Of a DNA stretch of 32,000 bases, positions 831 to 25,947 are shown piece after piece. Position numbers and translations under genes: made by a program. Source of the stretch: Haloquadratum walsbyi C23 (GTDB lineage Archaea; Halobacteriota; Halobacteria; Halobacteriales; Haloferacaceae); assembly GCF_000237865.1 (NCBI RefSeq), contig NC_017457.1, positions 68,259-100,258 on the forward strand, written 5' to 3'. Below the pieces are notes generated by a model. That model saw only the letters and a list, made by a program, of their open reading frames with translations. It searched no databases and had not been told where the DNA came from. How positions within the stretch are numbered: the first letter of the stretch is position 1; each line of letters starts with the position of its first letter.

Positions 831-831
831 T

Positions 832-1104
832 ATGGGTAGTGTCATATCTAAAGGCTGGGTCAATCATCTCACTATGAAGTGTTGGGAATGGACTGTAGTA
901 GAGCGGGTAAGTCGGACAGTCAGGATGGAAGAGATCCGCGAAAACGACTACAATCTGAATATCGATTTATACGTCGATACGACCAAACCAGAGGAAGATA
1001 TTGACGTACAGGAGGAACTGGCGGAACTACGCGAGTTGCAGGCAGAACGAGACGAGATTGAAGCGAAGATGACCCAGCATATGGAGGCTCTGAATTATGA
1101 GTGA
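832..1104 (+). pseudogene. hsdM: 3' remnant of Type I methyltransferase subunit hsdM (only about the last 70 codons are HsdM-like)
   Basis: The ORF tail VERVSRTVRMEEIRENDYNLNIDLYVDTTKPEEDIDVQEELAELRELQAERDEIEAKM matches the canonical extreme C-terminus of HsdM (..EEI..NDYNLNI.RYV..). No AdoMet-binding or NPPF/Y motif is present. Its stop overlaps the next hsdS start (ATGAGTGA at 1097-1104), as at a genuine hsdM-hsdS junction. Confidence 0.7.
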
Positions 1105-2452
1105 GGACATTACGCTGGATAAGTTCACAGAGGCTACCGCCTCTCAAGAGCGACAGGAGACACCAATAGGTGAGCTCCCAGTTGACTGGGACGTAGAGTG
1201 GTTGAAAGACGCAGTTGGGATTAATCCTGATGGTTTCTCTGAGGATGACTGGTCATCAGAGACATTTGAGTATATCTCGCTCTCAGAGGCATCTAATGGC
1301 GAAATAGAAAACAGTAAGACAATTCCTATCACGGACGCTCCAAGTCGGGCACAAAGAACAGTTCAGCAGGGTGATGTACTTGTGGGGACTGTCCGTCCAA
1401 AACAGAAAAGCCACGGGTTTGTCAGTGAGGAACACGCTGGGAAAATCTGTTCTTCTGGCTTTGGTGTCTTGCGAACTGAAACCCATTTTAACTCCCGCTA
1501 TCTTCTTCAAGAAATCCTCTCAAACCGATTTTTTTCCCAGATGGAGGCATATGTTGCAGGTTCAGGCTACCCTGCTGTCAAAATCAGTGACCTGAAGAAG
1601 CATCGAATTTCCATCCCACCTCTTGTGGAACAGAGGAAAATCGCAACCGTCCTCCACACCATCGACCAAGCGATTCAGAAGACCGAGGAAATTATCCAGG
1701 GGCTCCAAACGGCTCGTAAAGGACTTACTCAACAGTTATTGCGTTCTGGTTTTGAGGACGAAGCCAATTTAGTAAGCACCCGTTCTGGTCCTATCTCATT
1801 TGAGATCCCTTCTCATTGGAATGTTGTGACGATTGATAATATTACTGACAATATATATCGGTATCCAACCTATCAAAATATTGATTACGTAGATGAAGGT
1901 GTTCCAGAGGTGAGAATTGGTATGTTAGACGGGGAGGGTTATATCGAACGAGGTGATGAAAAGTACATCTCTGAATCAACCTCAGAAGAATATCCCCGTA
2001 CACAACTTGAACACGGTGATACGGTGATGGCTGTAAGGGGCGCTACGTTAGGAAAGACCGCCTCTGTTCCAGAGTGGTTAGATGGGGGCAATATTAATCC
2101 GAACCTAATTCGTATTTGCTCAAATGATGAGGTCTTAGATAGGTATCTCACGGAACTTTTCCTGAGTGGTCTGGTTCAAAGGCAAATAGAAGCTTTCTCT
2201 CAGCAAACAACGGTGAAAACAATCAAATCTGGAGACATTCGTAGAATTGCCGCCCCTATTCCGCCTGTAACTGAGCAAGAAAGAATAATGGATATACTAT
2301 CTTCGTTTTCATCTCGTATTCAAAACGACGATTCGTATCTTTCCCGTCTCCAGCGTCTCAAGAGCGGTCTAATGCAAGACCTTCTCTCAGGTAAAGTCCG
2401 AACAACTAATACTAACATAGAAATTCCAGAAGAAGTCATCACATATGGTTAG
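1097..2452 (+). CDS. hsdS: Type I R-M specificity subunit HsdS (two TRDs plus two conserved helices)
   Basis: 451 aa. Central conserved region IPPLVEQRKIATVLHTIDQAIQKTEEIIQGLQ and C-terminal region PIPPVTEQERI...LQRLKSGLMQDLLSGKVRT. The ATG overlaps the upstream stop, and its own stop overlaps the hsdR ATG (2445). Confidence 0.92.
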   Translation: MSEDITLDKFTEATASQERQETPIGELPVDWDVEWLKDAVGINPDGFSEDDWSSETFEYISLSEASNGEIENSKTIPITDAPSRAQRTVQQGDVLVGTVRPKQKSHGFVSEEHAGKICSSGFGVLRTETHFNSRYLLQEILSNRFFSQMEAYVAGSGYPAVKISDLKKHRISIPPLVEQRKIATVLHTIDQAIQKTEEIIQGLQTARKGLTQQLLRSGFEDEANLVSTRSGPISFEIPSHWNVVTIDNITDNIYRYPTYQNIDYVDEGVPEVRIGMLDGEGYIERGDEKYISESTSEEYPRTQLEHGDTVMAVRGATLGKTASVPEWLDGGNINPNLIRICSNDEVLDRYLTELFLSGLVQRQIEAFSQQTTVKTIKSGDIRRIAAPIPPVTEQERIMDILSSFSSRIQNDDSYLSRLQRLKSGLMQDLLSGKVRTTNTNIEIPEEVITYG

Positions 2453-5417: not shown

Positions 5418-6132
5418 GGTACGATTACACGAGCTAGAATTGCTGGGTGAGAGCGTCGAGTACGAACTACGGCGGAGTGCAGAGGCGTCAGAGCCACGGA
5501 TTGACGTCGATATTCACGGGGTGAGGGTAGTCGTCCCAGAGACTGCTGATTTTCAGCCAACAGAGCTACTGAAACAGAATGCATCGTGGGTGCTGGAGAA
5601 ACAGCGAGTGTATCAGAAGTATCGTGAGGAAGCCCCTGAGCGGACGTTTGAGGCTGGCGAGAGATTTCCGTTCCTCGGAGAAGAACACAAGTTGGTGGTT
5701 GAATCTCGGCAGTCTCACGCTGTGTCAGACCGGACGATTCATCTGCGAGAGAGCGCTGTCGCACAGTCGTCACTCAAACAAGCACTACGGAATTTCTACC
5801 GAAGTCGGGCACGCAAACACTTCGTTGATCGTGCCGACCAGTATGCTTCTCAGATGGGTGTTGAGTATAAGCAGATTGAGATTCGGAATCAGCGGACAAG
5901 GTGGGGGAGTTGTTCAACGTCAGGAACACTCGGACTCAACTGGCGGTTGATGATGGCTTCGCCTAACGTTATCGACTACATCCTTGTCCACGAGTTAGCA
6001 CATCTCCGTGAGCCGAATCACACGCAAGCGTTCTGGGATTTTGTCGCAGAGTACGATCCTGACTACGTGGAACACGCCGAATGGCTTGAGGAAAACAGTA
6101 CGCAACTCATCTTTTCTCAAGCCGACCTATGA
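5410..6132 (+). CDS. DUF45/YgjP-like (M48-type) zinc metallohydrolase, translationally coupled to hsdR
   Basis: HELAHLREPNH zinc motif (HELAH at 5989-6003) preceded by RWGSCS, which is typical of the YgjP/DUF45 family. The ATG at 5410 overlaps the hsdR stop (ATGAGTGA). The ORF-track start at 5401 is a TTG and less likely. Confidence 0.85.
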   Translation: MSEVRLHELELLGESVEYELRRSAEASEPRIDVDIHGVRVVVPETADFQPTELLKQNASWVLEKQRVYQKYREEAPERTFEAGERFPFLGEEHKLVVESRQSHAVSDRTIHLRESAVAQSSLKQALRNFYRSRARKHFVDRADQYASQMGVEYKQIEIRNQRTRWGSCSTSGTLGLNWRLMMASPNVIDYILVHELAHLREPNHTQAFWDFVAEYDPDYVEHAEWLEENSTQLIFSQADL

Positions 6133-6681
6133 AACTGCAAGTTGCTCTATTTCCGCCGTTATATCCTTGATAGACGACGAGATCTGGTTGAGGTCAGTAA
6201 GCCCAGTGCAGACAACCTTCCCGCTGGCGAAAATCAGGAGGACAGCATCTTGACCACGGTAAATTAGAGCAGGAAATTGCTCGGGTTCGTACTCGGCTTG
6301 CTCCAGTCCGAGTCCGATAGCAATTGCTTCTAACGACAGAGTCGAATCAACTTCTGCTGTTGCGACGATGTTCTTGATTTCGGCAGTAGGTTCGTATTCA
6401 AAGTTCAGTAACTCACGCATCAGCGTATTCACCCGCCTGACCACCTCCTCGAAATGTGCTGGTGATGTCGCTCCCACAATCGAGCATTTGCCACTTCGGT
6501 AAAACGGCACGTAGGTGTCATCGGGGGCAAAGCGAGCTTGCAACCAGTGGTTTTCAGATGGTTCGTAGGTGACAGAATTGACTTCGGATCGTTGTTCAAA
6601 GGTCTCAGCCAACGCCGATAACTCAAGCTCCTGCTGGTAGGTCAACATCCCAACGACGTTCGCAATCTCAAACTCTGCCAC
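6127..6681 (-). CDS. tbp: TATA-box-binding protein paralogue (divergent N-terminal repeat)
   Basis: 184 aa with two TBP repeats. The second is near-canonical (IKNIVATAEVDSTLSLEAIAIGLGLEQAEYEPEQFPALIYR...LLIFASGKVVCTG). The first is divergent (IANVVGMLTYQQELELSALAE...FYRSGKCSIVGA). Its 3' end overlaps the DUF45 gene convergently by 6 nt. Confidence 0.85.
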   Translation of the reverse strand: MAEFEIANVVGMLTYQQELELSALAETFEQRSEVNSVTYEPSENHWLQARFAPDDTYVPFYRSGKCSIVGATSPAHFEEVVRRVNTLMRELLNFEYEPTAEIKNIVATAEVDSTLSLEAIAIGLGLEQAEYEPEQFPALIYRGQDAVLLIFASGKVVCTGLTDLNQISSSIKDITAEIEQLAVS

Positions 6682-6864: not shown

Positions 6865-7941
6865 TCAAATATCATCATTTTCTCTGATAGAGATTTCGAC
6901 ACCACAGGCTTCTGCCATCCGCCCCAGTTCACGTTGTTTCTGATCCCAGCTTAAGTTGACTTCAAGATAGTATTCCTGTTCTAGTTCACGTGCTTGCTTC
7001 ATCTCCTTGTCGTTGTATGTTGGTTCGTCATTGACGATAGCACGATTCTTCGCAGGGATGTATGGGAGTGGCTCAATCGCAGAGATAAGGTCGTGATTTT
7101 GGATGAGGTAGTTCACTATCGACGCCATCAGGTCGCTCTGGACAGAATCTGTAAAGGTCTCAGCGACATCACCACTCTGAGAGATTTCGCCAGAATATGG
7201 CTGTGTTATCCTGTCCTCAGAGTCAGTTGATGAATCTTCATTATCCAATCGACGTGGAGTGTCCGTATCAATCTCGGACTCGATATCGTTGACGAGCCTG
7301 TCAATCATCTCTTTCGCTTGCGTTTGTGCTTCCGATTCGATAGCGTCAGAAACGGTGTCAGTGAGCAAATCCACAACCGCTGTGGCTAATTCTTCTTTGT
7401 CATCTGTCAGCGTATCCCGAGATTTTCGTAACTTCCTGATGTGTTCGATAATCGCTATTGATTCTTCATTGTGTATCGTGCTAACTTGATACGCCTCAAT
7501 GATACCCTTCTTGTCTGGAAGTTTCCGAAGTGTCGTCCGTTCAACCGCCTCGACTTTGAATTGTGAATCACTGTCACCGAGATATCGGTAGTAGAACTCA
7601 TACTCCTGTCCGTTGGTGAGAATACCCAATCTGACATTCTCACTCTGGAGATATGCACTCAGTTGCTCTCGATGCTTGGAGGTGAGCGTTTTACCCAGTC
7701 CCTTTGCTTCGAGAAATGCCACGGGTTGTCCGCCGAGTATAAGAGCATAATCGACTTTGAATGTTTTACTGAATGCCTTCACCGAGTACTCTAGTTCGGT
7801 GTTAGCTGGGATCTCCCAGCCAAGAAGTTCGATGAAATCGTTTAGTATAGACGCTTTCGTAGTTGCTTCCTGCATCTGCGGTGAATCCTCGATGATGGGT
7901 TGAGCAGACTCAACGTAGTCCCGAATCGATGCTGTGTCCAT
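6865..7941 (-). CDS. HsdR_N-like PD-(D/E)xK nuclease-fold domain protein with an acidic linker and an unknown C-terminal domain
   Basis: The N-terminal half carries the D...E-x-K...Q..Y...TNG signature (VDYALILGGQPVAFLEAKGLGK...REQLSAYL...LGILTNGQEYEFYY). ATG at 7941 (MDTASIRDY) is preferred over the longer track start at 8013. Confidence 0.7.
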   Translation of the reverse strand: MDTASIRDYVESAQPIIEDSPQMQEATTKASILNDFIELLGWEIPANTELEYSVKAFSKTFKVDYALILGGQPVAFLEAKGLGKTLTSKHREQLSAYLQSENVRLGILTNGQEYEFYYRYLGDSDSQFKVEAVERTTLRKLPDKKGIIEAYQVSTIHNEESIAIIEHIRKLRKSRDTLTDDKEELATAVVDLLTDTVSDAIESEAQTQAKEMIDRLVNDIESEIDTDTPRRLDNEDSSTDSEDRITQPYSGEISQSGDVAETFTDSVQSDLMASIVNYLIQNHDLISAIEPLPYIPAKNRAIVNDEPTYNDKEMKQARELEQEYYLEVNLSWDQKQRELGRMAEACGVEISIRENDDI

Positions 7942-8263
7942 TCTTACAAGTGATCTTCTCTCGTGTGATTCAAAGAAATGTGGGCAAAGACTCAGTAACC
8001 CTCCATTCGTCATTGGTCTCCTTGTCTGTAGTTACTCGTACTGACGCTCTTACTTCGTCTACGTGGGCGGTAGCTCACTCGCAGAACCTGTTTATTTCGC
8101 CCTGAGGTGATGTCAGTTCAGGGCGGAGGACTAGTTACCAATGGGCTTCCACGGTGGTGGTATCACTTCGGTGATTCTTAAAATGATGATAAATATCGTC
8201 GACTCTTCTTGTAGATGAAAAAATCCTAATACAGACAAGAATTATGTATTAAATTTTATTCTA

Positions 8264-8309
8264 CCTTATGTAACAATCTGATTCTGATATACTCTAATGT
8301 TACATAAGG
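8264..8309. repeat. Palindromic hairpin element, copy A (12-bp perfect stem ccttatgtaaca / tgttacataagg, 22-nt loop)
   Basis: Read directly from the sequence. It shares a 19-nt identical core (taccttatgtaacaatctg) and a similar 5' flank with copy C at 15179-15226. Confidence 0.8.
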
Positions 8310-8769
8310 CACAGCCGGTCGGTCTCGCAGAAACAGTGGTCTTCATAACGAGCGTGTTCCAACAAGACATCTATTCGACGGTTGCCAAGATTGTGATGCC
8401 ACAGTCACAAACCAGACAGTTGACCCAAAGGGATCGAATCTGAATCAAAGCTCCTTCTGTGAAATAATGCAAGCGATGCTGGACTGATTAGCAGGCTTCA
8501 AGGAGGAGATTATGCTTGGTATTGGGACAGGTGATGCTCGTGGTGCGTATGAGAGCTAAAAAACGAACCGTGATTCGGATGATTGAGACTGACGAACTGG
8601 GGGAAATCGACACAGATATATCAGCGCTCAGCAGATACTCATTCAGTCCTGTCTTGTTGAGGCTCCCAATTACAACAAAAGGGGCTGGTCCGAGGGTTTT
8701 CAGTATTCGCCCTCGAACAACTTCAATTCTCAATAGTGATAACCACATCAATTTTTTGTCATTGACAAT

Positions 8770-8970
8770 ATGGTGATGAATATGGACTTACCTGTCAAAT
8801 ACGGCACAGCCGCTATTATTAGGGTGCTTGCCATACTCGGCGTGGCGATGTTTGATGATGTCGGTATCCCTCTTGATCCTGAATTGCTTATTGTAACCAT
8901 CGGTGTCATTCCACTGTATATTTTATATCGGATCGGTCGCTGGGTAGTGGGTCTTATACAATCACCATGA
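8770..8970 (+). CDS. Small hypothetical two-TM membrane protein (66 aa)
   Basis: Two hydrophobic segments (AAIIRVLAILGVAMF; LLIVTIGVIPLYILY). The ATG overlaps the stop of a possible upstream ORF (8549..8776). There is no homology evidence. Confidence 0.3.
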   Translation: MVMNMDLPVKYGTAAIIRVLAILGVAMFDDVGIPLDPELLIVTIGVIPLYILYRIGRWVVGLIQSP

Positions 8971-9386
8971 GTGATAATCACATCTGCACAGGCGACGTCT
9001 CTGATTTTCTTATTCTTATTAACTGTCACGATCCCGGTTTACATCTCGAAAACGGGGTGTTCAATCTGATATGTCTATTATGGAAATAAAATAATAAACG
9101 CAGTCATGCGATTATTTATCAACTGAGTGACTACTGTCCTGACACAACTAACTCACTGTAACTGTGTGCGTACGATCTTTGCTATGTATCCAGCGTATGA
9201 TATTTTTTATCGAGATAGTATCAGTAAAGATGCCAATGTTCTCAGATCGGTATCTGCTGTTCTAATCAACTGCAGACAGACAGCGAAAGCGACAGCACTC
9301 GTAGTTTTTTATTCTCCCGACTAAATTTCAATTTGATACTTACAACCGCTAGAAATATTCTTGTCTCTGTGTCAGAACAGGAGCGT

Positions 9387-9617
9387 ATGGGATTATTGGA
9401 TAATTTCACTGGTGACGACACAGAGCTAATCGACGTGCAAAAATACGATGTGTCAACGACAATGAATTTGATGCGCATTATCGACTGGGAAGCTCAAGTT
9501 ATATTATATACAGATACAACACGGGAAGGTTATACGAGCGTCCCGTTTTCTGAGGCTAATATTAGTGCCGATGACGCTCCTGAGAATGTGAAACGAATTC
9601 TTGATTCACAGAAGTAA
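9387..9617 (+). CDS. Hypothetical acidic protein (76 aa)
   Basis: ATG at 9387 preceded by ggagcg. The composition is acidic and halophile-like (MGLLDNFTGDDTELIDVQKYD...). No recognisable domain. Confidence 0.4.
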   Translation: MGLLDNFTGDDTELIDVQKYDVSTTMNLMRIIDWEAQVILYTDTTREGYTSVPFSEANISADDAPENVKRILDSQK

Positions 9618-9726
9618 TATTCAAATTTACGTTTTAATTATCTGATCGTACACTTGCTCGGCGGTTTGAATCCAGCATGGTGAAGCGTCACTTTTCGATG
9701 AGAAACGTAACTGCCCCTCCAATAAC

Positions 9727-10200
9727 TTAATTGGGGATAATCATCAGAGTAGTGAGTTTAATAAATTTCCACAGTTCAATCGGGGCACTATCGGGACTGC
9801 CTGAGCTTGCACCACCACTTCCGTCGATTATAAGCGAGAATCCAATCAAAAGGATTACACTAACGACAATTCCAAACACTGCAAACCCAATAGCATTAGC
9901 GGTACTACTATTGATACACCGTTGTCCAATACCGTAAGAGCCCCTTCCTGCAGTTGCATATCTAACAAAGGCTGCAATTAGTGGACCACTGAGCACTGCA
10001 AATGAGAGGATTATAATCGAAATAACGCCAGTAATTATTCCACCGGATATGCCCTCCCCTCCGGCAAATTGTAATAGGAGGATGATGGCAAGAAGTCCAA
10101 ACCCGACACCGATAACGAAATAAAATTGAATAGTTCGGATAATCAGTGGAATGTCGATGCCAAGAGCATCGCCTCCTCTAAATTCGGTTTTAAAAGGCAT
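9727..10200 (-). CDS. Hypothetical integral membrane protein (about 4 TM, Gly-rich)
   Basis: ATG at 10200 (MPFKTEFRGGDALGIDIPL...) followed by four long hydrophobic segments. Hairpin copy B lies immediately upstream. Confidence 0.6.
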   Translation of the reverse strand: MPFKTEFRGGDALGIDIPLIIRTIQFYFVIGVGFGLLAIILLLQFAGGEGISGGIITGVISIIILSFAVLSGPLIAAFVRYATAGRGSYGIGQRCINSSTANAIGFAVFGIVVSVILLIGFSLIIDGSGGASSGSPDSAPIELWKFIKLTTLMIIPN

Positions 10201-10208
10201 ACCGAGTG

Positions 10209-10258
10209 ATCTTATGTAAAATATTGTCTTGTTGAACCCCGGCTTTGTTACATAAGAT
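10209..10258. repeat. Palindromic hairpin element, copy B (11-bp perfect stem atcttatgtaa / ttacataagat, 28-nt loop), inverted relative to A and C
   Basis: Read directly. On the minus strand it begins cttatgtaacaa, like copies A and C. It ends 8 nt upstream of the minus-strand ATG at 10200. Confidence 0.8.
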
Positions 10259-10308
10259 AACATCGCTGAGAGAACGCTGCTAGTGTTGTATTTGCGTTTC
10301 TGGCGGGG

Positions 10309-10821
10309 TTAACTCCATTTGGGGTCTTCTTCATAGTCGTCTAAGCTAAAATATGACTCTTTACTTTTCTTAGATATTGTGCCATCCGAAGCGGATTTGT
10401 AGTTACTTTTAGAATCACCATCATTATGATCCCCATCCATTCCATTTTGCTCGTCAGGTTCTGCATTTATTTTCTGCTCCACCTGATTCACAATATCAGG
10501 CTCTACATCGGTTGCATCTTCGAGATATTGCATTAGTGAATCAGCCTCAGTTTCAGAGAGTTCTGGAAGAGAATCTGGTGAGAGTTCTGGGGCAGATTGG
10601 TCCTGTGGCTTGACTCCAGTTCCGTGAGTGTAGACTTCTCCTGCTGTCTTCAGCGGATTAATTAGCCCCCACGGAAGATCCTCGCTGTCGGAGTATCCGA
10701 GATCAGCAATGAACTCTTCAGTTTGAGAGGTCACTTGATATGTAACATGTCCAAGATTAGAGAGGCGTGCCTGGATATAATATCCACTGTTGTCATTATA
10801 TCTATTGAGTGTTGGTGTCAT
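10309..10821 (-). CDS. Hypothetical, very acidic protein (170 aa)
   Basis: ATG at 10821 (MTPTLNRYNDNSGYY...). The track start at 10833 is a GTG. Long acidic low-complexity C-terminal half. No recognisable domain. Confidence 0.6.
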   Translation of the reverse strand: MTPTLNRYNDNSGYYIQARLSNLGHVTYQVTSQTEEFIADLGYSDSEDLPWGLINPLKTAGEVYTHGTGVKPQDQSAPELSPDSLPELSETEADSLMQYLEDATDVEPDIVNQVEQKINAEPDEQNGMDGDHNDGDSKSNYKSASDGTISKKSKESYFSLDDYEEDPKWS

Positions 10822-11002
10822 ATGATGAATCACTCACATGCCTTGTGAGAAATTACCAAGGTTAATAGTAATTTCGCCCACTCTCGCCTGTCGCAACTAT
10901 TCGGTAGCGTAATAATAACCGAAGTGCGTCAGTTTTTGCAGGACTATTCAGTTTCACTCCGCCCACAGAAACAGTTAGTATTTACATATCGTTGTCATTT
11001 TT

Positions 11003-11191
11003 ATGCCAGGCTCGGTGAATCTTGGTGATCTACCAAGTTGGATACTGGTGATACTGATAGGATTAGGTATTTCAGTGGCGATTTCTAACGGGATGCTCGT
11101 TGGATATGGTCGTATTGCTCGTTTGATGATTCTCGGTGGAGTCATCTTAGGTGCAGTTTATTTCGTTATAGACCTATCAAACAAGCTCTAA
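11003..11191 (+). CDS. Small hypothetical two-TM membrane protein (62 aa)
   Basis: Two hydrophobic helices (WILVILIGLGISVAI; LMILGGVILGAVYFVI). It is divergent from the 10821 gene across an AT-rich intergenic region. Confidence 0.4.
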   Translation: MPGSVNLGDLPSWILVILIGLGISVAISNGMLVGYGRIARLMILGGVILGAVYFVIDLSNKL

Positions 11192-11305
11192 ATTTCTGAG
11201 GCGTCAGACATCGACCCCTCATTTTATTTCCACGTTGACAGATATAGTGTACACTCGTTGTATCAACGGCGAAAGGGACAGTGTTGCAAGCACTGCCCTA
11301 ACTAC

Positions 11306-11980
11306 ATGAAAATGTCAGTAAACATTGACGGAGATTCAATATCTCCATCGTCAAGTTGTACCACCGACGTTATTAAACAATTGATTTCTAAGATTCATGA
11401 GCAACATCAAACCATAGACAGTCTTGAATCTGAAATATCTGATATTCGTGATCAGTTAGCAACTCGTGCCAAGTCAGATGCAATCGATAAAAAACAGATC
11501 TCTGAACAAGAAGAACGGATATCAGAACTCGAGGACAAAACAGACGACTCAGAGACGTCTAAGGACCAGTCTTCCACCTCTGACTCCGAGGGTGAGGACA
11601 CGAACACGCAATCAACGGCTCTCGAACAAGTCGTTGCTCTTCCAGACGACGTTGCTACTGAGAATCTTACTTCTAATCAGAAACGGGCGAGGTCAATCGC
11701 TCGTCGGATTGATGAGTATGGCAAGTCTGTGCCAGCAGGTATCGCAATCACGTCAACTCGGATCCGAGACATTCTCTCAGGGCTGGAGGATAAGAGAATT
11801 CACAGGCAGACAGTCCAACGAGTCGCAGACTTCTTGAAACGATTTGGAGACTGTGAGATTGACACGAAGGAGACACGTGGAGGCAAGGACGTGGTAGTGT
11901 TCTCTGAATCAGTTGTCGAAGATATCACGAGTGTTGTGACGGGCACCAAGGATCTCGGTGTGACTCCAGCAATCATATAG
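11306..11980 (+). CDS. Coiled-coil protein with an acidic S/T-rich linker and a C-terminal putative winged-helix DNA-binding domain
   Basis: MKMSVNIDGDSISPSS... begins a heptad-like N-terminus. The C-terminus NQKRARSIARRIDEYGKSVPAGIAITSTRIRDILSGLEDKRIHRQTVQRVADFLKRFG looks like an HTH/wHTH. The N-terminus is paralogous to the ORF at 14692..14871. The TTG start at 11258 is considered less likely. Confidence 0.6.
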   Translation: MKMSVNIDGDSISPSSSCTTDVIKQLISKIHEQHQTIDSLESEISDIRDQLATRAKSDAIDKKQISEQEERISELEDKTDDSETSKDQSSTSDSEGEDTNTQSTALEQVVALPDDVATENLTSNQKRARSIARRIDEYGKSVPAGIAITSTRIRDILSGLEDKRIHRQTVQRVADFLKRFGDCEIDTKETRGGKDVVVFSESVVEDITSVVTGTKDLGVTPAII

Positions 11981-12270
11981 TCATAGTCGCACTCACTGGC
12001 AAGGAATAGTATTACACAATCAACATGTCAGCCTTTGTCTATACTAGCAAGTGAAGGAAGAACCTCTTTTATTCAGTAGTGTTTTGACTGAATGAAACGA
12101 GTTTGCTGAACAGGTGGAAAATTCAGCCATCACAACGAGTGTGACGCTGTCTCGAGTATCGTGCTGCTTGATCTCGGTCATTGTGTGATGACGAGCTTTT
12201 ATGATGTCTTCTAGAGGATTCATTTCTGCTGTGGCTCCATTCGCCTCATTCAAGAAAGTATCACGGAGTA

Positions 12271-12308
12271 ATTGGCAATGAGATGCCAACTATATCATTT
12301 CCACGAGA
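12271..12308 (+). repeat. Direct repeat copy 1 (26-bp perfect core atgccaactatatcatttccacgaga at 12283-12308, plus an attggca extension)
   Basis: Read directly. The identical 26-mer recurs at 13358-13383. Copy 1 ends 54 nt upstream of the lipoprotein ATG. Confidence 0.85.
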
Positions 12309-12362
12309 CTGATACTCAGTGCATATGTTTATATAAATCAATTTATATTATGTGATTGTCAT

Positions 12363-13262
12363 ATGCCTTCACGTCGTAACCTGCTGAAGATTGGAGCATC
12401 AACGTGTACTGCAACAATTATTGCTGGATGTTTTGGTGGTGATAGTGACTCTGAAGACACCAGTACAAATGTCCCTGAAGAAACGCCATCAGAGGAGGAG
12501 ACACCAACAGAGACAGACACTCCTGAGGATGTTTCTTTATTTGCTGACTACGGGATCAATGAAACTGGCTTCACTGTGGAACTCACACAAAGTGCTTTGG
12601 GAGAGGTAGCACAGATTCAGCTTGAGACACCATCTGAGGAGAGAATAATTGAAATACAAGAAACTATCACAGAGTATACATTTGAAATAGTATCTGACAG
12701 AGCAGGTGTTTGGTCACTCACCGCTCTCACCAGCAATGATGATGCTGTTGAAACAGTAGAAGTAGAGATTACATTTGAAGCATCCGTAGAGGAGATTGGA
12801 ACCTTAGCTCAGCTTGGAATTACAGGAGAATCTCCCGAGTACGAGCAAGTGCACATGCAAATGACGATTATAAATGATGGCGATGTTCCTCTCGAACCAG
12901 ACCAAGACAAGATTGAGTTAGTCGTACCAGGTCTTAATATCGACGTACCCACTTTTGATGCAGATACCTCATTCAGCGCAGAGGATGAGGACGATATTAT
13001 CACATCTGGAAATGATGGTATATATACAACCGCCACTGACTCACTGATCAGAGCACCATTTACTTTAGAAACGTATAATCTTCCAGATGGGGTCGACCGG
13101 GATGACCCCGTAGGTGAGTCATTTCAGGGTCAAATTAAGATTGTTTATGAGGCAGAAAGAGAGGACACTACGGTTCCAATAGATGTTATTATGGGTGATA
13201 ATGTGATGGAATTTAATTCTACATCTGTATATTATGAAGGGACAGAGGTAAAGAAAAGATAA
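12363..13262 (+). CDS. Secreted Tat-dependent lipoprotein with an acidic T/E/P-rich linker, function unknown
   Basis: N-terminus MPSRRNLLKIGASTCTATIIAGCFGG has a twin-arginine motif (SRRNLLK), a hydrophobic region and a lipobox-like IAGC. It is followed by a DSDSEDTSTNVPEETPSEEETPTETDTPED linker. Confidence 0.8.
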   Translation: MPSRRNLLKIGASTCTATIIAGCFGGDSDSEDTSTNVPEETPSEEETPTETDTPEDVSLFADYGINETGFTVELTQSALGEVAQIQLETPSEERIIEIQETITEYTFEIVSDRAGVWSLTALTSNDDAVETVEVEITFEASVEEIGTLAQLGITGESPEYEQVHMQMTIINDGDVPLEPDQDKIELVVPGLNIDVPTFDADTSFSAEDEDDIITSGNDGIYTTATDSLIRAPFTLETYNLPDGVDRDDPVGESFQGQIKIVYEAEREDTTVPIDVIMGDNVMEFNSTSVYYEGTEVKKR

Positions 13263-13344
13263 GATGCGGAACTGAGCCGACCTGCCATTTAGATTCATGT
13301 TATACTGTCCATGGGCAAGAAGAGAGGCTCGTGGAATCGCTCAA

Positions 13345-13383
13345 ATTGGCAGATGAAATGCCAACTATATCATTTCCACGAGA
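13345..13383 (+). repeat. Direct repeat copy 2 (26-bp perfect core at 13358-13383, plus an attggca extension)
   Basis: Read directly. It lies about 85 nt downstream of the lipoprotein stop codon. Confidence 0.85.
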
Positions 13384-13685
13384 TAGATTAACGATCCATG
13401 TTAACGGTGATTCGACAGATTGGCGATATGTGAACAGTATGGAGTAACCCGCTGGAAGGGCGGTCTTAGCACAACTGCCGGGGATTGTGTGTAGAGAAAA
13501 TACAAAGCCTGTTTTCGCACATCGGACGGTTGTTTGAATATGCAATTTTCAGAGATTGCCCCGTCACATCTCGTCATATCCCATCACGTTGACCCTGTGT
13601 TTAGAAACGATATTGAATACTGAACCGTTGAGTTACCTCACAGATACGGTAATCTCGGCACCATGTGCAAAAATTGAGACCAAAT

Positions 13686-14222
13686 CTATTCGCAGGATTT
13701 GACGGCAGTATCGGAACGCTTGGCTTGCTCTTGCCTGACTGCCGAAGCCATTTCTGTTGCATTTCGAGAGCTGAGTCTCACTTCTGTGCCATCGGTTCTC
13801 TCTATGTGTACCGTCCCCTCTATGTCTCCCCCAACGTACCGATGTTTATCAACCAAGATATCATCCGATAAGTCGCTCAAAGTGAGTAGAAGCGGGATAG
13901 CGTATCGGTACATCGGGCTGACATACTCTTCCATCAAGTTCTGAGTAGGGTTCTCCTCCACAGACTCGATCTCGGCATAATCAACGAGCTTAGTTCTCAC
14001 AATCCCGATCGGCAGTTGAACGATGTCTTTGTACACACCATCATCTTCCACGGTAATTTGAAATGTGAGAGACTTCAGCATAATCACGCATAGGACACAG
14101 ACGAGTAGCAAGGAGATGCCTAATCTCAATGAGAATAGAAAAGTAACCACAGTCGGGGCTACGAATATGGCGAGGAGCTTGTACGCCGTTCGATTTTGCA
14201 TCCTGAACCGTTCAGAGTACAT
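13686..14222 (-). CDS. Hypothetical membrane protein: N-terminal TM hairpin plus a soluble C-terminal domain (possibly bPH/DUF304-like; not verifiable here)
   Basis: ATG at 14222 (MYSERFRMQNRTAYKLLAIFVAPTVVTFLFSLRLGISLLLVCVLCVIML...), followed by an acidic domain of about 120 aa. The GTG at 14246 and the ATG at 14201 are alternative starts. Confidence 0.6.
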   Translation of the reverse strand: MYSERFRMQNRTAYKLLAIFVAPTVVTFLFSLRLGISLLLVCVLCVIMLKSLTFQITVEDDGVYKDIVQLPIGIVRTKLVDYAEIESVEENPTQNLMEEYVSPMYRYAIPLLLTLSDLSDDILVDKHRYVGGDIEGTVHIERTDGTEVRLSSRNATEMASAVRQEQAKRSDTAVKSCE

Positions 14223-14326
14223 ATGTCCTGAGTAGCCTACTGACACAATAGTGACGAGTCGTGGGTTGTCTGTTTGTGGTTGTTTAACTTGTGGTCAGTG
14301 TTGGTTCGTTGTTTTATTATACTAAC

Positions 14327-14518
14327 TCAGTACGGATTCCAGAAGTACACTAACCCACCATACAAGACTGCATTCACGCCTGCCAGTGAGAGTGCTGAAA
14401 GGAGGCTTCTGTCGGTGAACAGATACCCGCATACGAAAATGATCACGAACCAGAGGAGACCCTGCACAATCGGACTCTGTCCGAGTGACTGAATATCTGT
14501 GTCGACGAAGGACATCAA
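14327..14518 (-). CDS. Small hypothetical two-TM membrane protein (63 aa)
   Basis: Hydrophobic helices LLWFVIIFVCGYLF and LSLAGVNAVLYGGLVYF. Preferred over the overlapping 104-aa ORF (14322..14636) in another frame, which looks non-protein-like. Confidence 0.4.
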   Translation of the reverse strand: MMSFVDTDIQSLGQSPIVQGLLWFVIIFVCGYLFTDRSLLSALSLAGVNAVLYGGLVYFWNPY

Positions 14519-14691
14519 TTGTCGAGTTGGATTCGTCGAATAAAACGTCCGTTGAGACTCTCTCAGTCAGTAATTCATTTGTTATCATAGACGCAGGAAT
14601 AACTTCAATTATGATGTTGAAAAGTAGTGTTGACACTCGCTGTTATCAAACGGCGATGGACAGTGTAAGCGCACTTTCCTCAAAAGATACC

Positions 14692-14871
14692 ATGATTGGA
14701 ATTGAAGAGGATTCAATCTCCCCGTCGTCAGGTAGCGTAGAGAAGATAATTAATCAATTAGTCGAGACTATTCACGAGCTGCAAGACAGTCTGTCGGAAG
14801 TTCGTATCGGCTTAAAGAATCTGTTGAAGTCAAATTTGTGCGTTCTTAACCGAGTTTGGCGTCTAATATGA
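14692..14871 (+). CDS. Short paralogue (N-terminal coiled-coil part only) of the 11306..11980 protein, possibly a truncated remnant
   Basis: MIGIEEDSISPSSGSVEKIINQLVETIHELQDSLSEV aligns with NIDGDSISPSSSCTTDVIKQLISKIHEQHQTIDSLESEI. It lacks the linker and the DNA-binding C-terminus. The ATG at 14656 is an alternative start. Confidence 0.4.
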   Translation: MIGIEEDSISPSSGSVEKIINQLVETIHELQDSLSEVRIGLKNLLKSNLCVLNRVWRLI

Positions 14872-15178
14872 AATACTCAAAATTTAATCAGTATTCCTCT
14901 TGATCAGAGTTATCCGAGTCAGTATTGATTCTTCTATCTGATTGATAACGCTCTGCCCTGCCTTTGTTGTGCTCGTCGATATTAATTAGATAGTCCGGAA
15001 ATCAGTGTTCTCACAGCTGTATATCAGGTGAGGTATCGTCTGAGTGACCAATATTAATTCACCGGGGACAGGTGCTCCTGATCAACGAGACAATAATCAC
15101 TCATATCGTCTTGTTTGCGGGCTGTCTGGACAGTCGTTTTTGAAGCCCACCCGATTATCTGGATGTAATTTTGTTTTT

Positions 15179-15226
15179 ACCTTATGTAACAATCTGCTTT
15201 CACCCCGTTCAATTATTACATAAGGT
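15179..15226. repeat. Palindromic hairpin element, copy C (11-bp stem accttatgtaa / ttacataaggt, 26-nt loop)
   Basis: Read directly. It has the same 19-nt core and orientation as copy A, about 6.9 kb away. Confidence 0.8.
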
Positions 15227-15582
15227 TCAGATCAATTAGTTTTTTGAAATTGTGATTTTTGCATTCAGTACACCGTCCGTATTTAATCGTCGAGGACAAA
15301 CTCCGTGCTGTTTTCTTCACTCCTCGCTCACTACTTTTTCGTGATAACATACGCTTGACAGACGGGAGGTGTGGAGAACAGGATAATTAAAAAATTTCAC
15401 ATACTGACGTTTGAATAACAGTGAGACCACGATAGTCTTTAAGAGGTTTTATTCAACATATCATATGTCTTATGAGAGTAGAAAAATCATATAATAAATG
15501 ACTCACATACGGAGCACACTACGATTCGAATTGAGTCTGATACCACAGCCACAACCGATGATACAGTCATATCAATACTGTC

Positions 15583-16115
15583 ATGATCAAGAAAGAATCC
15601 TCAACTCCAAACGGCAAATTATCGCCAGCTGATATCCAACCCAGCACTAACCTCCCCGATGTCGACCTCTCCGGCATTGATCTTGTCAGCACTGACTTCA
15701 CGGATATTAATTTCTACGGTGCTGATCTCTCTGATACCAGTCTCGTGGATGCTAACCTCTCTGCGACCGACCTTTCAAACGCCAGCTTCGATGGTGCCGA
15801 CCTCTCAGACGTTGACCTTTCAGGTGCCGAACTCTCCGGCGTGAATCTCACGAGTGCAGATCTTACCGAGGCTGACCTCACTGACGCCAACCTTAGAGAA
15901 GCCGAACTCACCGCCGCTGACCTCACGCATATCACTCTTACACGTGCCAATCTCTCCTATGCCAAACTCGATAGAGCCAATCTCCGATACGCCTCTCATG
16001 GGCTCAGGTAAATAGTGCTGATATCACGGACGCCTGTCTCATTGAAGCCGATTTCTGCCACGCTGACCTCTCTTACACCGATCTTGGAAGAACCGATGTT
16101 CGGAGCACAAAATGA
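15583..16115 (+). pseudogene. Pentapeptide-repeat protein, interrupted by a frameshift near 15990-16008
   Basis: The 142-aa ORF is almost entirely A(D/N)LXX repeats (ADLSDTSLVDANLSATDLSNASFDGADLSDVDLSGAELSGVNL...) and stops at 16011. The repeat pattern continues in the -1 frame (..LSWAQVNSADITDACLIEADFCHADLSYTDLGRTDV) to the TGA at 16113-16115. Confidence 0.7.
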
Positions 16116-16633
16116 GTACAGTACGATTGTATCAAGTAAAGATGGACGAGTGCGAAGAAGGGTATGTCACTGAATCGTATCTCTCTCTACTCGGTGCGTG
16201 TGTCCATAGTGACGGTCAGTGGTGAACGGATGACCTCTATGGAATATTGTCCGTTAGAGTGTATATATAATCTCTCGATGGTTATTGATGCATTCACAAG
16301 GAATACCGTGGTTTGATACTAATACTCAATGTTGGCAACAGATGTTGATATGAATATCAGTACCTCAGACTTTCTGGAAGAGAGGCAGTGATTTCATCGA
16401 TTGGCTCTGGTGTGACAGCACGACCTTACGTAACAATTCGTCTCTCATTTTATCCGATAATAGACAAGATGGTGACATACCAACCTCTCAGAATCTTGAG
16501 CCGTCACCTCTCTTTGTCACGTGGAAGAGTATTTACTGATTGTAGTTTTATTTGTTACTCGACAGGTGCTAGTGGGAAAGCGCTCTCCATCCATGTCGTA
16601 CGAGATGCTGATAGAACGTAGTCTCAGATAATG

Positions 16634-17839
16634 TTAGTCTGCGTGTTGACCGATTATTTGTCCCACTCGACTTTCGGATTCAAGCACGTCGGCGATGATA
16701 TCCTCATCAGCATTGAATTCGTATTTATAATAGCTCCCACCGTTCGATCCTTTATTCACCTCCATCAGATTGATGAATCCCTTCAGCGATAGCTGATTCA
16801 GACGCCGGTGTAATGTCCGTGTCGATACGGTATCACGTCCGATCTGCTGTGCGATTGTCTTGTACTGGTCGTGGATCACTTTTCGTCTGACTGGTGTTCG
16901 TCCTTGTCGTGCCAGCGACAGTACTGTGTAGAGCACGACGTGACTTTGTGTTGGTAACGCTTCGAGTTCGTCTTTAACGACGCCACTCTGGACTTGGTGG
17001 TATGCCTTTGTGACATGAGAGTCTGTAATCGTCGAATCATTGTTGTCTCGTGCGATGAAACCCGCATTCGAGAGGATATTGATCGCTTCACGAGCGCTTC
17101 CGGTGCGCTGTGCGACTTTTGCAGCTGTCAATGGGATTACTTCTTCGGACAGTGCGCCGTCCAAGAACGCTTCATCAGCACGTTGTGAGAGGATTTCCTG
17201 TAACTGATCAGCATCATACGGCTTGAAGTGGATCTCGTGTTCACACAGCGTTGATTGGACACGGGCTGACAGTTCATCACGGAACTTGAAATTATTCGAA
17301 ATGCCGATCAGTCCGATTTTTGTCTCGGTAATGTTCCCGTTCGTATGTGCACGTGGGATTTGATACAACAGTTCATCATCAGATCTGAAACTATCAATTT
17401 CATCAAGCACGAACAGGACATGTGTGGCGTCGGTATCCTCAATATGTTCCCACAGTTTTCGATGTACTGTGGAACGGGGATAGCCTGTCGTGTGAATCTC
17501 CTGATTTCGGTCACGAAAATGATTCACGAGGTGACACGCAACTTGATAACTCGTTGCATCTTTACAGTTCTGCCAGACAACCTCGACGGAGACGTTGTCG
17601 AATTCAACCTGGTCCTCGAGCAACTCATCAAGTATCATTTCTGTTGCGAGTGTTTTCCCAACGCCGGTATCACCGTAGACGAAGATGTTTCGGGGACTGG
17701 CTCCATTAGCCACGCTCTGAAGCACTTCCACGTATGTAGACATCTCATCTTCTCGAGCAATGAGTGTGTCAGGCGTATATCCATCAGTAAGGACCTCCTC
17801 GTTATCGAACACGGCGTCAGTCTGTGTGAACCGTCCCAT
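16634..17839 (-). CDS. orc1: Orc1/Cdc6 replication initiator (AAA+ plus C-terminal winged helix)
   Basis: 401 aa. Walker A VYGDTGVGKT (17651-17674). Walker B FVLDEID. Sensor region GLIGISNN. C-terminal wHTH (LSLARQGRTPVRRKVIHDQYKTIAQQIGRDTVSTRTLHRRLNQLSLKGFI). Confidence 0.95.
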   Translation of the reverse strand: MGRFTQTDAVFDNEEVLTDGYTPDTLIAREDEMSTYVEVLQSVANGASPRNIFVYGDTGVGKTLATEMILDELLEDQVEFDNVSVEVVWQNCKDATSYQVACHLVNHFRDRNQEIHTTGYPRSTVHRKLWEHIEDTDATHVLFVLDEIDSFRSDDELLYQIPRAHTNGNITETKIGLIGISNNFKFRDELSARVQSTLCEHEIHFKPYDADQLQEILSQRADEAFLDGALSEEVIPLTAAKVAQRTGSAREAINILSNAGFIARDNNDSTITDSHVTKAYHQVQSGVVKDELEALPTQSHVVLYTVLSLARQGRTPVRRKVIHDQYKTIAQQIGRDTVSTRTLHRRLNQLSLKGFINLMEVNKGSNGGSYYKYEFNADEDIIADVLESESRVGQIIGQHAD

Positions 17840-17860
17840 ACTAGCCGTCTCTGACCCTAC

Positions 17861-17870
17861 CTATAAATAA
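17861..17870 (-). promoter_or_regulatory. Putative TATA box for orc1 (minus strand ttatttatag), consistent with a leaderless transcript
   Basis: An AT-rich TATA-like element is centred about 26 nt upstream of the orc1 ATG (17839). Its position fits archaeal TATA spacing. There is no experimental support. Confidence 0.4.
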
Positions 17871-17895
17871 CCACTGTGTGAACTGTGTCAAGTGA

Positions 17896-17953
17896 GTCAA
17901 GTGTGTCAAGTGAGTCGTTGATTTATATAACACACACACACCGTTTTTCACGG
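17896..17953. repeat. Left arm of a 58-nt origin-type inverted repeat (gtcaagtg units, tttatata, (ca)n, ccgtttttcacgg)
   Basis: By hand alignment, 52 of 58 positions match the reverse complement of 18241-18298. An additional gtcaagtga unit lies at 17887-17895. Confidence 0.85.
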
Positions 17954-18107
17954 ACGTATGTCTTGAGAGAGTGGGTGGCTGTTGGGACGCCGTGATCGGA
18001 GCCGTATCCGTGCATGTGTGGGAGGCAGTGGTTGTAGGGGTTGGCGGGAAGGAGGCGTGTTCACGACACGCCTCATGTTGTTTGTTCGCTCAATTTACTC
18101 AGTACGG

Positions 18108-18190
18108 TTATTATTGTATTTATTATTATATAAAGTTTTTGTCATATATATTTTACATAATTATATCAATATGTTATTGAGATGATAATA
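18108..18190. other. Extremely AT-rich block, candidate duplex-unwinding element of a replication origin
   Basis: Line 18121-18180 contains only 7 G+C out of 60 by hand count. The block sits between the two inverted-repeat arms next to orc1. Confidence 0.6.
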
Positions 18191-18240
18191 CCACCACTGA
18201 CAGCGACTAACATCTGACCCCACTGTTTCAGCGAGAGTCT

Positions 18241-18298
18241 CACTGAGAAACGGTGTGTGTGTGGTATATAAATGAACCACTCACTTGACACACTTGAC
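18241..18298. repeat. Right arm of the 58-nt origin-type inverted repeat (cactgagaaacgg-(tg)n-tatataaa-...cacttgac)
   Basis: It is the reverse complement of 17896-17953 with 6 mismatches. The cactgagaaacgg segment loosely resembles the archaeal ORB core (..CAGTGGAAAC..). Confidence 0.85.
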
Positions 18299-18404
18299 AG
18301 AATAAGATACGAATGACACACGTGACAAAATGTGTCTATAGCTAGTCATGATGTAACGTGATTTTCTCCGTATGCAACTTGATACCACCGTGTAAATCGG
18401 ACAC

Positions 18405-18608
18405 TCAGTGAAGTTGAGCAGTCATCTGTTGAATTCCGTAATACAAAACTGGACCCAATACAGCACTGAGAATAACTGTTCCAACGAGAGGGAGAATTCC
18501 TGTCGGATCGGGACTGAGTGCAATCAAGATGCTGAATCCACTAACCACGGCAATAAAAATAGATATGCCTACAAGCGCAGTCTGTGCCATATCGGAGCGT
18601 ACACTCAT
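18405..18608 (-). CDS. Small hypothetical two-TM membrane protein (67 aa)
   Basis: ATG at 18608 (MSVRSDMAQTALVGISIFIAVVSGFSILIAL..LPLVGTVILSAVLGPVLYY). No homology evidence. Confidence 0.4.
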   Translation of the reverse strand: MSVRSDMAQTALVGISIFIAVVSGFSILIALSPDPTGILPLVGTVILSAVLGPVLYYGIQQMTAQLH

Positions 18609-18986
18609 ATCCCTAATAAAACGGCATTTTCTATTTTCCCGCTGAGAAACTAATACCAATCGAACAATATCGTGTTTGTCACAGATGTCCCACAGTCTCA
18701 GAGTCGCTCAGAACACATTTCAGTATAGTAATACACATCATATTGCAAGAAATATTAGCATGCATACGCATCAGTATAGTTCGGGGAAAATGTAATTTAG
18801 ACTATTTAATACGGTGCTGTTTTTACTTCACTTTAGAAATAAAATCGCTCAGAGCTGTAATATGTATATATCTCATCACTACAGAAGCCTGGGCTGAGTA
18901 GCCCGTCAGTAAGTGGGATCAGGAGACTCCTGTGCAAGGCACAAGTATCTACAGATTCCATACAATGATATCATAGCCTCCAACGA

Positions 18987-21860: not shown

Positions 21861-21862
21861 CG

Positions 21863-25915: not shown

Positions 25916-25947
25916 GTTCATGTCTGAATTAATTTATTATGCTCGTC

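Follow-up and report, generated by a model that had tools for sequence, protein, structure and literature searches.

A split palindrome around core promoters and its association with DUF6788 zinc-ribbon proteins in archaea, bacteria and their mobile DNA

Promoter-bearing intergenic repeats are known from haloarchaeal mobile DNA, and those of the halovirus HF2 are among the closest described counterparts of the element considered here (Russ, Pfeiffer & Dyall-Smith 2021, PMC8707807). In the HF2 repeats, a B recognition element (BRE) and a TATA box stand between conserved flanks, which were proposed to bind element-encoded factors, and the transcription start site (TSS) falls in the 3' conserved block (PMC8707807). 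This article addresses a split palindrome of about 45 bp, which occurs in three intact copies and one decayed copy in a 32,000-nucleotide stretch of DNA (contig NC_017457.1, positions 68,259 to 100,258 of the forward strand; the whole stretch is called the window below), and which elsewhere stands in front of genes for small zinc-ribbon proteins of the family DUF6788. The motif and the HF2 repeats are alike in being short repeated intergenic elements of haloarchaeal mobile DNA that combine a promoter with conserved flanks. However, the HF2 repeats contain no split palindrome, have another sequence, belong to one virus genus and show no tie to a protein family, whereas the present motif is found in both Archaea and Bacteria and accompanies DUF6788. 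We consider it probable that the motif is a split, promoter-embracing operator read by DUF6788 proteins, autoregulatory at their own genes and acting in trans at solitary (orphan) copies.

Several repressor systems also invite comparison. RepR of the haloviruses phiH and PhiCh1 has an operator, and the RepR system (phiH L region, PhiCh1 ORF48/ORF49) occupies the same neighbourhood as DUF6788 in these genomes, with PhiH1_250 lying 2 kb and PhiCh1_230 less than 100 bp from repR. Both cases involve a small virus- or plasmid-encoded protein on promoter-overlapping operators, which DUF6788 would have to bind. RepR is nevertheless a different protein, the DUF6788 protein is annotated as 'uncharacterized' in both genomes, and the palindrome is absent from the T4/T6 switch, its sites being the T8 promoter and a place upstream of the T7 (parA) promoter. 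The archaeal repressors MDR1, LrpA and Phr bind around BRE/TATA or between TATA and TSS, and the present motif is like theirs in operator position and in the steric mechanism implied. Those proteins are of the helix-turn-helix (HTH), DtxR or Lrp type and use contiguous sites, whereas here two distant arms surround the whole BRE/TATA region, and do so in bacterial hosts as well. A likeness to the Zur/Fur and DtxR/TroR repressors with znuABC-type operons is seen in Methanothrix, where at no fewer than nine loci an operon for ZnuA, an ATP-binding cassette (ABC) ATPase and an ABC-3 permease (ZnuA-ZnuC-ZnuB) opens with the DUF6788 gene and its palindrome, and in the conserved Cys3-His zinc site of the protein. 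The first gene of a metal-uptake operon is a place often held by the operon's own repressor. Yet neither in sequence nor in fold does DUF6788 resemble Fur or DtxR, it is mostly plasmid- or virus-borne and not at metal genes, and its palindrome is a 45-bp split one, not a compact box of 15-19 bp.

The pair of motif and protein is apparently undescribed so far. The searched literature contained no paper with the term 'DUF6788' and no relevant paper with TTACATAAG, and the phiH1 genome paper gives PhiH1_245 and PhiH1_250 as uncharacterised and leaves the palindrome unmentioned. NCBIfam and PADLOC hold no match to DUF6788, and PHROGs has phrog_22659 alone, of unknown function.

Copies of the motif and its tie to DUF6788

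The exact pattern CTTATGTAA-N{20,34}-TTACATAAG has three matches in the window, at 8265-8308, 10211-10256 and 15181-15224, with spacers of N26-28, against an expectation of 0 from 100 dinucleotide-preserving shuffles. The recurrence of a palindromic hairpin motif, reported in an earlier note made from the sequence, is therefore real. Copy A (8264..8309, plus strand) is an intact split palindrome, CCTTATGTAACA-N22-TGTTACATAAGG, with a perfect stem of 12 bp (8264-8275 / 8298-8309) and a TATA-like ATATAC in its loop, 17 nt before the arm end. Copy C (15179..15226, plus strand) is intact and oriented as A, with an 11-bp stem (15179-15189 / 15216-15226); its left arm and loop start are identical to those of A, and its loop holds only a weak AATTATTA. 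The two have the 19-mer TACCTTATGTAACAATCTG in common and align over 34 nt at 85% identity. Copy B (10209..10258, minus strand) is intact and inverted, with an 11-bp stem (10209-10219 / 10248-10258). The perfect stems of 11-12 bp, the identical core of A and C and the inversion of B had all been read correctly.

On the minus strand copy B runs ATCTTATGTAAC-...CAAGACAATATTT-TACATAAGAT; the AT-rich AATATTTT abuts the right arm, and 9 nt beyond this arm comes the ATG of a gene at 9727..10200 (minus strand). The earlier note had rightly placed B against this start codon, at 8 nt rather than the 9 nt counted here, and the distance is of the same order as at DUF6788 loci. The gene encodes a predicted multi-pass membrane protein of 157 amino acids, with no detectable family, and is the only clear coding target directly behind a copy. 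A loop block of B, CAAGACAAT(A)TTT, is common to copies in Haloquadratum J07HQW2. A supposed degenerate half-copy at 16423-16440 proves to be a decayed full copy, D (16423..16481, plus strand), with left arm CTTACGTAAC, right arm GTGACATACC, a loop insertion of ~12 nt and 1+3 arm mismatches (compared also with a J07HQW2 copy, locus L001); it lies ~150-210 nt past the orc1/cdc6 stop codon. No further copies at up to 5 mismatches rise above chance level in the window.

Written as CTTAnnnAAC / GTTnnnTAAG, the arms are exact in A and have one mismatch each in B and C, at the inner AAC/GTT position; nnn is TGT/ACA in all three. The CTTA...TAAG length is 44, 46 and 44 bp in A, B and C, compared with 43-47 bp at archaeal and cyanobacterial DUF6788 loci. 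Orientation was called from asymmetric loop features common to DUF6788-proximal copies, by which A and C point rightward and B leftward.

The exact motif was sought in one genome per species (596 Gb), with at least 120 loci recovered, and in viral contigs. By our own estimate, 18 specified bases and 15 gap lengths would give ~100 matches by chance in 596 Gb, so that scattered bacterial matches are expected. Among the matches listed, the motif concentrates in Halobacteria (Haloquadratum, Halosimplex, Halococcus, Halovenus, Halorubrum, Halocatena and Halalkalirubrum), in Methanothrix and other Methanotrichaceae, and in filamentous cyanobacteria. In these three groups the arms extend to CTTATGTAAC/GTTACATAAG over a total length of 43-47 bp. 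The general form of the palindrome is CCTTAnnnAAC-N24-26-GTTnnnTAAGG. Right behind the motif an open reading frame (ORF) of 95-116 amino acids recurs, with the core ...CGKxxCxC...HGPYWYxYxR...Y(I/V)G. The genome and viral loci that were fetched contain 222 exact instances of the motif, of which 64, from Methanothrix, Halobacteria, cyanobacteria, other bacteria and phage contigs, have such a DUF6788 ORF within ~480 nt downstream.

The proteins behind the haloarchaeal and cyanobacterial motifs score 34-38 bits against Pfam DUF6788 (PF20586), whose gathering threshold is 27.2 bits. Scores below it were obtained for the protein of Methanothrix (15 bits) and that of the phage (26.9 bits), but both align over the invariant C..C..C...HGPYxYxY core; homologues in databases are annotated as PF20586. 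The family, which is a zinc-ribbon protein with a conserved Cys3-His zinc site, comprises ~940 clusters at 50% identity when searched with a haloarchaeal profile. An AlphaFold2 model of a Halorubrum member (mean predicted local distance difference test score 74.9) has an N-terminal helix and a three-stranded sheet.

The same tie is seen from the protein side. A set of 80 metagenome loci was fetched by haloarchaeal DUF6788 peptide patterns alone, with an alignment restricted to Halobacteria. The palindrome, at up to 2 mismatches, is present in 69 of the 75 loci with enough upstream DNA, a count which refers to Halobacteria-type proteins only, and in four of the other six a symmetric variant, CTTACC(T/A)AAC...GTT(A/T)GGTAAG, takes its place. 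Most of these loci have a single copy, and in most it ends 2-3 nt before the ATG; across loci, the distance to the DUF6788 start codon ranges from 0 to 18 nt. The protein-based scan of viral contigs gave three loci. DUF6788 homologues also occur on 58 PLSDB plasmids (Halobacteria, Leptolyngbya) and in the haloviruses phiH and PhiCh1. At seven of eight inspected plasmid loci an inverted repeat of 44-47 bp ends 0-9 nt before the DUF6788 start codon; the divergent homologue on a Haladaptatus halobius plasmid (L291) has no inverted repeat. In PhiCh1 the repeat ends directly at the ATG of the DUF6788 gene, and in phiH its end is immediately followed by PhiH1_245, with which the T8 operon opens; the DUF6788 gene PhiH1_250 belongs to that operon. 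The motif is thus tied to DUF6788 in both search directions. It is strongly conserved and stands in a strict positional relation to genes, so that neither ground on which the earlier note was to be abandoned applies.

Many copies stand alone. Among the matches listed, ~6 of ~35 copies in Halobacteria from the motif scan precede a DUF6788 gene, and the rest are solitary and often clustered. All four window copies, three intact and one decayed, are such orphan sites. Orphans are also present in Halosimplex, Halococcus, Halovenus (Halovenus salina, where they sit in unannotated stretches), Halorubrum laminariae and Haloquadratum J07HQW2. In Halorubrum laminariae the orphan lies on scaffold 8 (L019) and two palindrome-preceded DUF6788 genes lie on scaffold 14; in Halovenus salina the orphans lie on plasmid CP112973 and DUF6788 genes on CP112974 and CP112975. 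Orphans and DUF6788 genes thus occupy different replicons or scaffolds of one genome, which makes it plausible that the protein acts in trans. In Haloquadratum J07HQW2 a stretch of 92 kb contains at least four copies, inside a conserved block of ~115 nt, and their loops (CTTATGTAAC-ATCTGCC...CAAGACAATTTG-TTACATAAG) resemble those of the window copies.

Promoter geometry and arm recognition

The loop of the palindrome carries promoter elements at related loci, in agreement with the earlier suggestion that the loops could contain TATA boxes. The Halorubrum-type loop reads CC-CGAAC-GC-TAAyrT-GGCTCCAATT, with CGAAC at -31..-35 and, closer to the ATG from which both are counted, TAAyrT at -23..-28. 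Experiments on haloarchaeal promoters gave the same BRE/TATA spacing (PMC8707807), which here implies a leaderless mRNA. Methanothrix loops carry TTATAAAT, with a TTG or ATG start 7-9 nt past the right arm. A possible -10 element in cyanobacteria is the TAAGAY at the end of the right arm, and their loops have a GTCTTKC in common that could be -35-like.

The virus phiH supplies an annotated start site. Its arms lie at positions 3686-3697 and 3724-3735 of the locus, with TTTAATAG in the loop and the PhiH1_245 ATG at 3736. Within the right arm lies the annotated T8 TSS (record position 31672; locus position 3728), at a distance of 24-25 nt from the preceding TTTAATAG and 8 nt ahead of the ATG. 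The T8 transcript therefore does not include the left arm.

It is sequence, not pairing, that is under conservation in the arms. From cyanobacteria to Halobacteria the loops differ but arm positions 1-8 do not vary, and position 9 is non-complementary (T or G opposite T) in 28 of the 38 distinct haloarchaeal arm pairs, with positions 10-11 pairing again. The central triplets vary by lineage: TCA/TGA in phiH and PhiCh1, CCT/AGG or CCA/TGG in Halorhabdus, Halopenitus and Haladaptatus, and the lineage-specific arms CTTGTACAAC in Halalkalicoccus and CTTATGTACA in Leptolyngbya. These arm changes are symmetric and go together with changes in the C-terminal beta-hairpin of the protein, in that TGT-type arms accompany HGPYxYxY[YWR]R...[KS]xY proteins and C-centred arms (TCA, CCT, CCA) accompany HGPYxYxVxR...WxY proteins. 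Such co-variation is what one would expect of a protein that recognises both arms and evolves in step with them, and we take it as support rather than proof.

The motif takes other arrangements in some hosts and viruses. Some Halobacteria (L207, L208, L228, L247, L064, L117) have a second palindrome 4-6 nt past the DUF6788 stop codon, with no ORF behind it and with a loop start (AACATCTG) similar to the one in copies A and C of the window; possible roles are those of an insulator, a terminator or an antisense promoter. Methanothrix-like tailed-virus contigs of IMG/VR (L162, L163, L141, L136 and others) carry an extended form, TTTCTTATGTAAC...GTTACATAAGAAA, with no DUF6788 gene, at junctions between modules of structural and of regulatory (CopG-like) genes, and these viruses may exploit or mimic the DUF6788/znu operator of the host. 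Synergistetes-like phage contigs (L134, L154, L157, L174 and others) encode a protein of 190 amino acids with a DUF6788-like zinc ribbon at its N-terminus and, at its C-terminus, a weak match to an HTH-like domain that stays below threshold. The gene is preceded by a shorter palindrome, CTTATGTAAGG-N17-CCTTACATAAG, with TATATATAC in the loop, extra direct (iteron-like) copies of CTTATGTAAG, and a second site ~280 bp away.

Weighing the explanations

The operator reading, which we regard as probable, can be spelled out as follows. In its home context, CCTTAnnnAAC-N24-26-GTTnnnTAAGG wraps the core promoter: at related loci the left arm is placed just upstream of BRE, the loop supplies BRE and TATA (in bacteria, a -35-like element) and the right arm falls between TATA and the TSS. 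The mRNA is leaderless or has a short leader, its start codon following the right arm at 0-18 nt. The gene behind this putative operator, nearly always one for a DUF6788 protein of 95-116 amino acids, would encode its reader, which would recognise both arms sequence-specifically through its C-terminal zinc knuckle and beta-hairpin. With both flanks of the promoter occupied, access of TBP, TFB and RNA polymerase would be controlled, and the outcome would be autoregulation at the protein's own gene and trans-regulation at extra copies. We infer both the binding by DUF6788 and repression as the sign of the regulation. In the window the four copies would then render a plasmid-like region beside an orc1/cdc6 origin responsive to a TGT-type DUF6788 protein from the chromosome, a plasmid or a virus elsewhere in the cell. 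To that region would belong at least the membrane-protein gene 9727-10200 behind B, together with anything transcribed rightward from A and C.

A number of observations weigh against this reading. The 32-kb window holds no DUF6788 gene or remnant by tblastn or by a hidden Markov model on the six-frame translation, and none was seen in five 8-kb Haloquadratum loci, so that a cognate DUF6788 protein of the window's organism is putative. The ORF listing shows no credible ORF directly behind A or C, and the nearest real gene past C, for a pentapeptide protein at 15583-16011, begins 357 nt downstream. A and C do have TATA-like loop stretches, but the promoter activity of the orphans is putative. 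Haloquadratum-type loops lack a clear TATA at the canonical distance, and for this reason the orphans may be mere binding sites without promoter activity. The T8 transcript of phiH is annotated as constitutive and gives by itself no sign of regulation. The co-variation comes from few independent lineages, and co-inheritance alone could produce it. Centre to centre the half-sites are separated by ~35 bp, an unusual spacing for a simple dimer, and a search of the PDB with the DUF6788 model found no fold match better than E = 1.9 and hence no independent sign of a DNA-binding fold.

Two other accounts were weighed. The palindromes might be parS-type centromere-like or replication-control sites, with DUF6788 as an adaptor of partition or copy control, the promoter overlap secondary, and the window copies as maintenance sites of an orc1/cdc6 replicon. 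Halobacterial DUF6788 genes usually have Orc1/Cdc6 nearby, their most frequent neighbour, besides a small zinc-finger gene and a convergently oriented TRAM-domain gene, and the nearness of Orc1/Cdc6 speaks for such a role. Relatives of the window's Orc1/Cdc6 lie beside the motif or DUF6788 in ~27 fetched loci (tblastn) and on several plasmids, DUF6788 genes are often near coordinate 1 of plasmid records, and the four window copies are within 8 kb of the orc1/cdc6 origin. In phiH and PhiCh1 the module sits in the L/immunity region, convergent with the parA operon, and a second palindrome lies 50-95 nt upstream of the start of that operon; on the Leptolyngbya plasmid ParA and ParB come next after DUF6788, and similarly at L044. 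Some centromere-binding proteins also autoregulate, and this account overlaps the operator reading without excluding it. We nevertheless think it unlikely, given that no partition or replication genes accompany the Methanothrix module, which stands at the head of a chromosomal znuABC operon, that most protein-selected loci have one copy set exactly on the gene's own promoter and no cluster of sites, and that the window has no ParA. A nucleic-acid hairpin with no dedicated protein, be it an RNA terminator, stabiliser or translation mask or a DNA cruciform, would suit the perfect stems, the symmetric arm variants (TGT/ACA, TCA/TGA, CCT/AGG), the copies just past DUF6788 stop codons and the folding of the window copies, which beats shuffles (z = -3.1 to -5.9). 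Such a hairpin is very improbable, as the T8 start leaves the left arm untranscribed, the loops hold BRE/TATA at promoter distance from leaderless starts, the arm sequence is invariant across domains beyond mere complementarity, and a T·T or G·T mismatch interrupts the stem of the commonest haloarchaeal form midway. The single-strand folding energy is also weak (-5 to -9.4 kcal/mol, with loops of 22-28 nt), no T-run follows A or B, and Rfam at a permissive threshold over 7500-19000 has no match at the copies and a single sub-threshold snoRNA match elsewhere. An intrinsic terminator or structured RNA was rejected on these last points, and the terminating or stabilising hairpin offered by the earlier note is not upheld.

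The remaining accounts concern the ~7-kb ORFan block between A and C, which the earlier note saw as an AT-rich unit bracketed by the copies. If A and C were att-like or MITE-like (miniature inverted-repeat transposable element) borders of an insertion, their arrangement as direct repeats that match over 34 nt at 85% and share an identical core of 19 nt, the genes without detectable families between them and the location within a variable defence island would all be accommodated. Little credence can be given to this, because B lies inside the block in inverted orientation and D outside it beyond C, no target-site duplications were found at the flanks of A, B or C, the window has no tRNA genes, and no integrase, transposase or recombinase domain was detected among the window ORFs searched against Pfam. 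Nor is the AT-rich block sharply bounded: the guanine-plus-cytosine (GC) fraction is 0.41-0.46 from ~7 kb to ~19 kb, and 0.408 at 18-19 kb, with no step at A or C. MITEs and att sites were discarded as candidates on these grounds, the fixed position relative to the start codon in 69 of 75 protein-selected loci, and in hundreds of unrelated loci of two domains, being a further point, since mobile borders would show no such constancy. The note's shared operator for a dedicated regulator fares better as to the operator, though not as to the regulator it proposed. Copies serving a regulator from within the block, either the 11306..11980 protein or its partial paralogue at 14485..14871, are about as improbable as insertion borders. 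Both ORFs lie among the copies and share an N-terminal DSISPSS segment, and the C-terminus of the 11258-11980 ORF could, as the earlier reader supposed with no backing from Pfam, be a small DNA-binding domain. However, Pfam gives only sub-threshold matches of coiled-coil type, which we take as noise, no relatives occur in any of the ~290 fetched motif loci, and the bond of the motif in both search directions is with DUF6788, the likeliest regulator.

Two further candidates were rejected. A coding motif (SYVT...YIR in some frames) is out, with spacing that varies by 1-3 nt between homologous copies and a position upstream of conserved starts. Integron attC sites (R''-L''...L'-R') share with the motif an imperfect palindrome, AAC/GTT inner cores, a variable centre and a place before ORF starts in ORFan-rich DNA. 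They lack conservation of the outer arms across phyla and fixed linkage to one gene family, are uniform in orientation (here B is inverted) and measure ~57-141 bp, for which 45 bp is too short. Moreover, the cores ATGTAAC and GTTACAT are each one base off RYYYAAC...GTTRRRY, and the searched window ORFs have no integrase domain.

Surroundings of the window copies and meaning of the pair

The Orc1/Cdc6 replication initiator recognised by Pfam at 16634..17839 (minus strand) has directly upstream of it an origin-like structure at 17896..18298, in which two 55-nt inverted repeats (17896-17950 / 18244-18298), 93% complementary, surround a 293-nt AT-rich spacer. Tandem 9-nt TGTGTCAAG-like units lie beside these repeats at 17875-17910, and judged by its layout 17875-18298 is a probable replication origin. 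On the other side, just upstream of A, Pfam identifies a TBP paralogue (6127-6681) and a 382-amino-acid protein with an HSDR_N/MmeI_N-like nuclease N-terminal domain (6865-8013). TBP and Orc1/Cdc6 flanking the ORFan block resemble a plasmid-derived or accessory replicon region. Further out, a type I restriction-modification system with two HsdS genes and HsdR lies at 171-5417, and defence genes lie at 18987-31951, namely a DrmD-like SNF2 helicase, an Eco57I-type methylase and a DruE-like helicase of 1781 amino acids with an MZB domain. The stretches 171-6132 and 18987-31951 form a defence island, which also includes a YgjP-like peptidase beside the restriction-modification system, and the HsdS genes contain shared repeats that are 71-81% identical (48-130/1613-1695; 722-848/2335-2461). 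The GC content of the window, ~47%, and short DNA modules common to it and Haloquadratum walsbyi J07HQW2 point to an archaeal, Haloquadratum-like origin.

The ORFs between 8.7 and 15 kb have no family match in Pfam, PHROG or PADLOC. Two of them, 11258-11980 and 14485-14871, have an N-terminal segment (…DSISPSS…I.QL…IHE…) in common and look like partial paralogues, with no family assignment. A conserved non-coding module of ~110 nt (...GCAGTCATGCGATTATTTATCAAC...ACACAACTAACTCAC) at 9049-9166 occurs also in three J07HQW2 palindrome loci (L056 1090-1208; L001 5246-5341; L058 3850-3907), in L001 before a pentapeptide-repeat gene, and may be another promoter or a small RNA. A 40-nt direct repeat (12270-12308 and 13344-13383, 95% identical) surrounds a Tat-lipoprotein-like gene at 12363-13262; it has its own small palindrome, TTGGCA-N6-TGCCAA, followed by a TATA-like CTATATCATT, and may be another kind of operator-promoter within the island. 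The gene is also carried by three short Logan contigs, which lie between 12127 and 13591, just outside the 40-nt repeats.

A wider proposition extends beyond the window, and we advance it tentatively. DUF6788 may constitute a hitherto unrecognised cross-domain family of zinc-ribbon DNA-binding regulators that use a 45-bp split palindrome around the whole core promoter, at archaeal TBP/TFB and bacterial sigma promoters alike. Its members might act in a Zur-like manner in Methanothrix and as core regulators of halobacterial Orc1/Cdc6 plasmid and virus replicons, including the phiH L segment, while orphan copies might wire genes of chromosomal islands to the DUF6788 proteins of plasmids and viruses. 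The theme itself is the familiar one of repressor and operator; what appears new is the uncharacterised protein family, the unusual promoter-embracing architecture and the spread across domains.

If DUF6788 binds the palindrome, an unknown family would gain a function, and with it a recognition code relating the TGT, TCA, CCT and CCA triplets to residues of the beta-hairpin. A conserved, unannotated gene by the immunity region of phiH and PhiCh1 would become a candidate regulator of the T8 and parA operons, the Orc1/Cdc6 plasmid replicons of haloarchaea would acquire a recognisable regulatory marker, and Methanothrix would gain a candidate regulator of zinc uptake. One operator architecture at archaeal and bacterial promoters would be an unusually clean case of a single repressor/operator design working with two transcription machineries. 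For the window itself, what looked like the border of an island would be reinterpreted as a set of regulatory sites, probably dependent on a protein encoded elsewhere.

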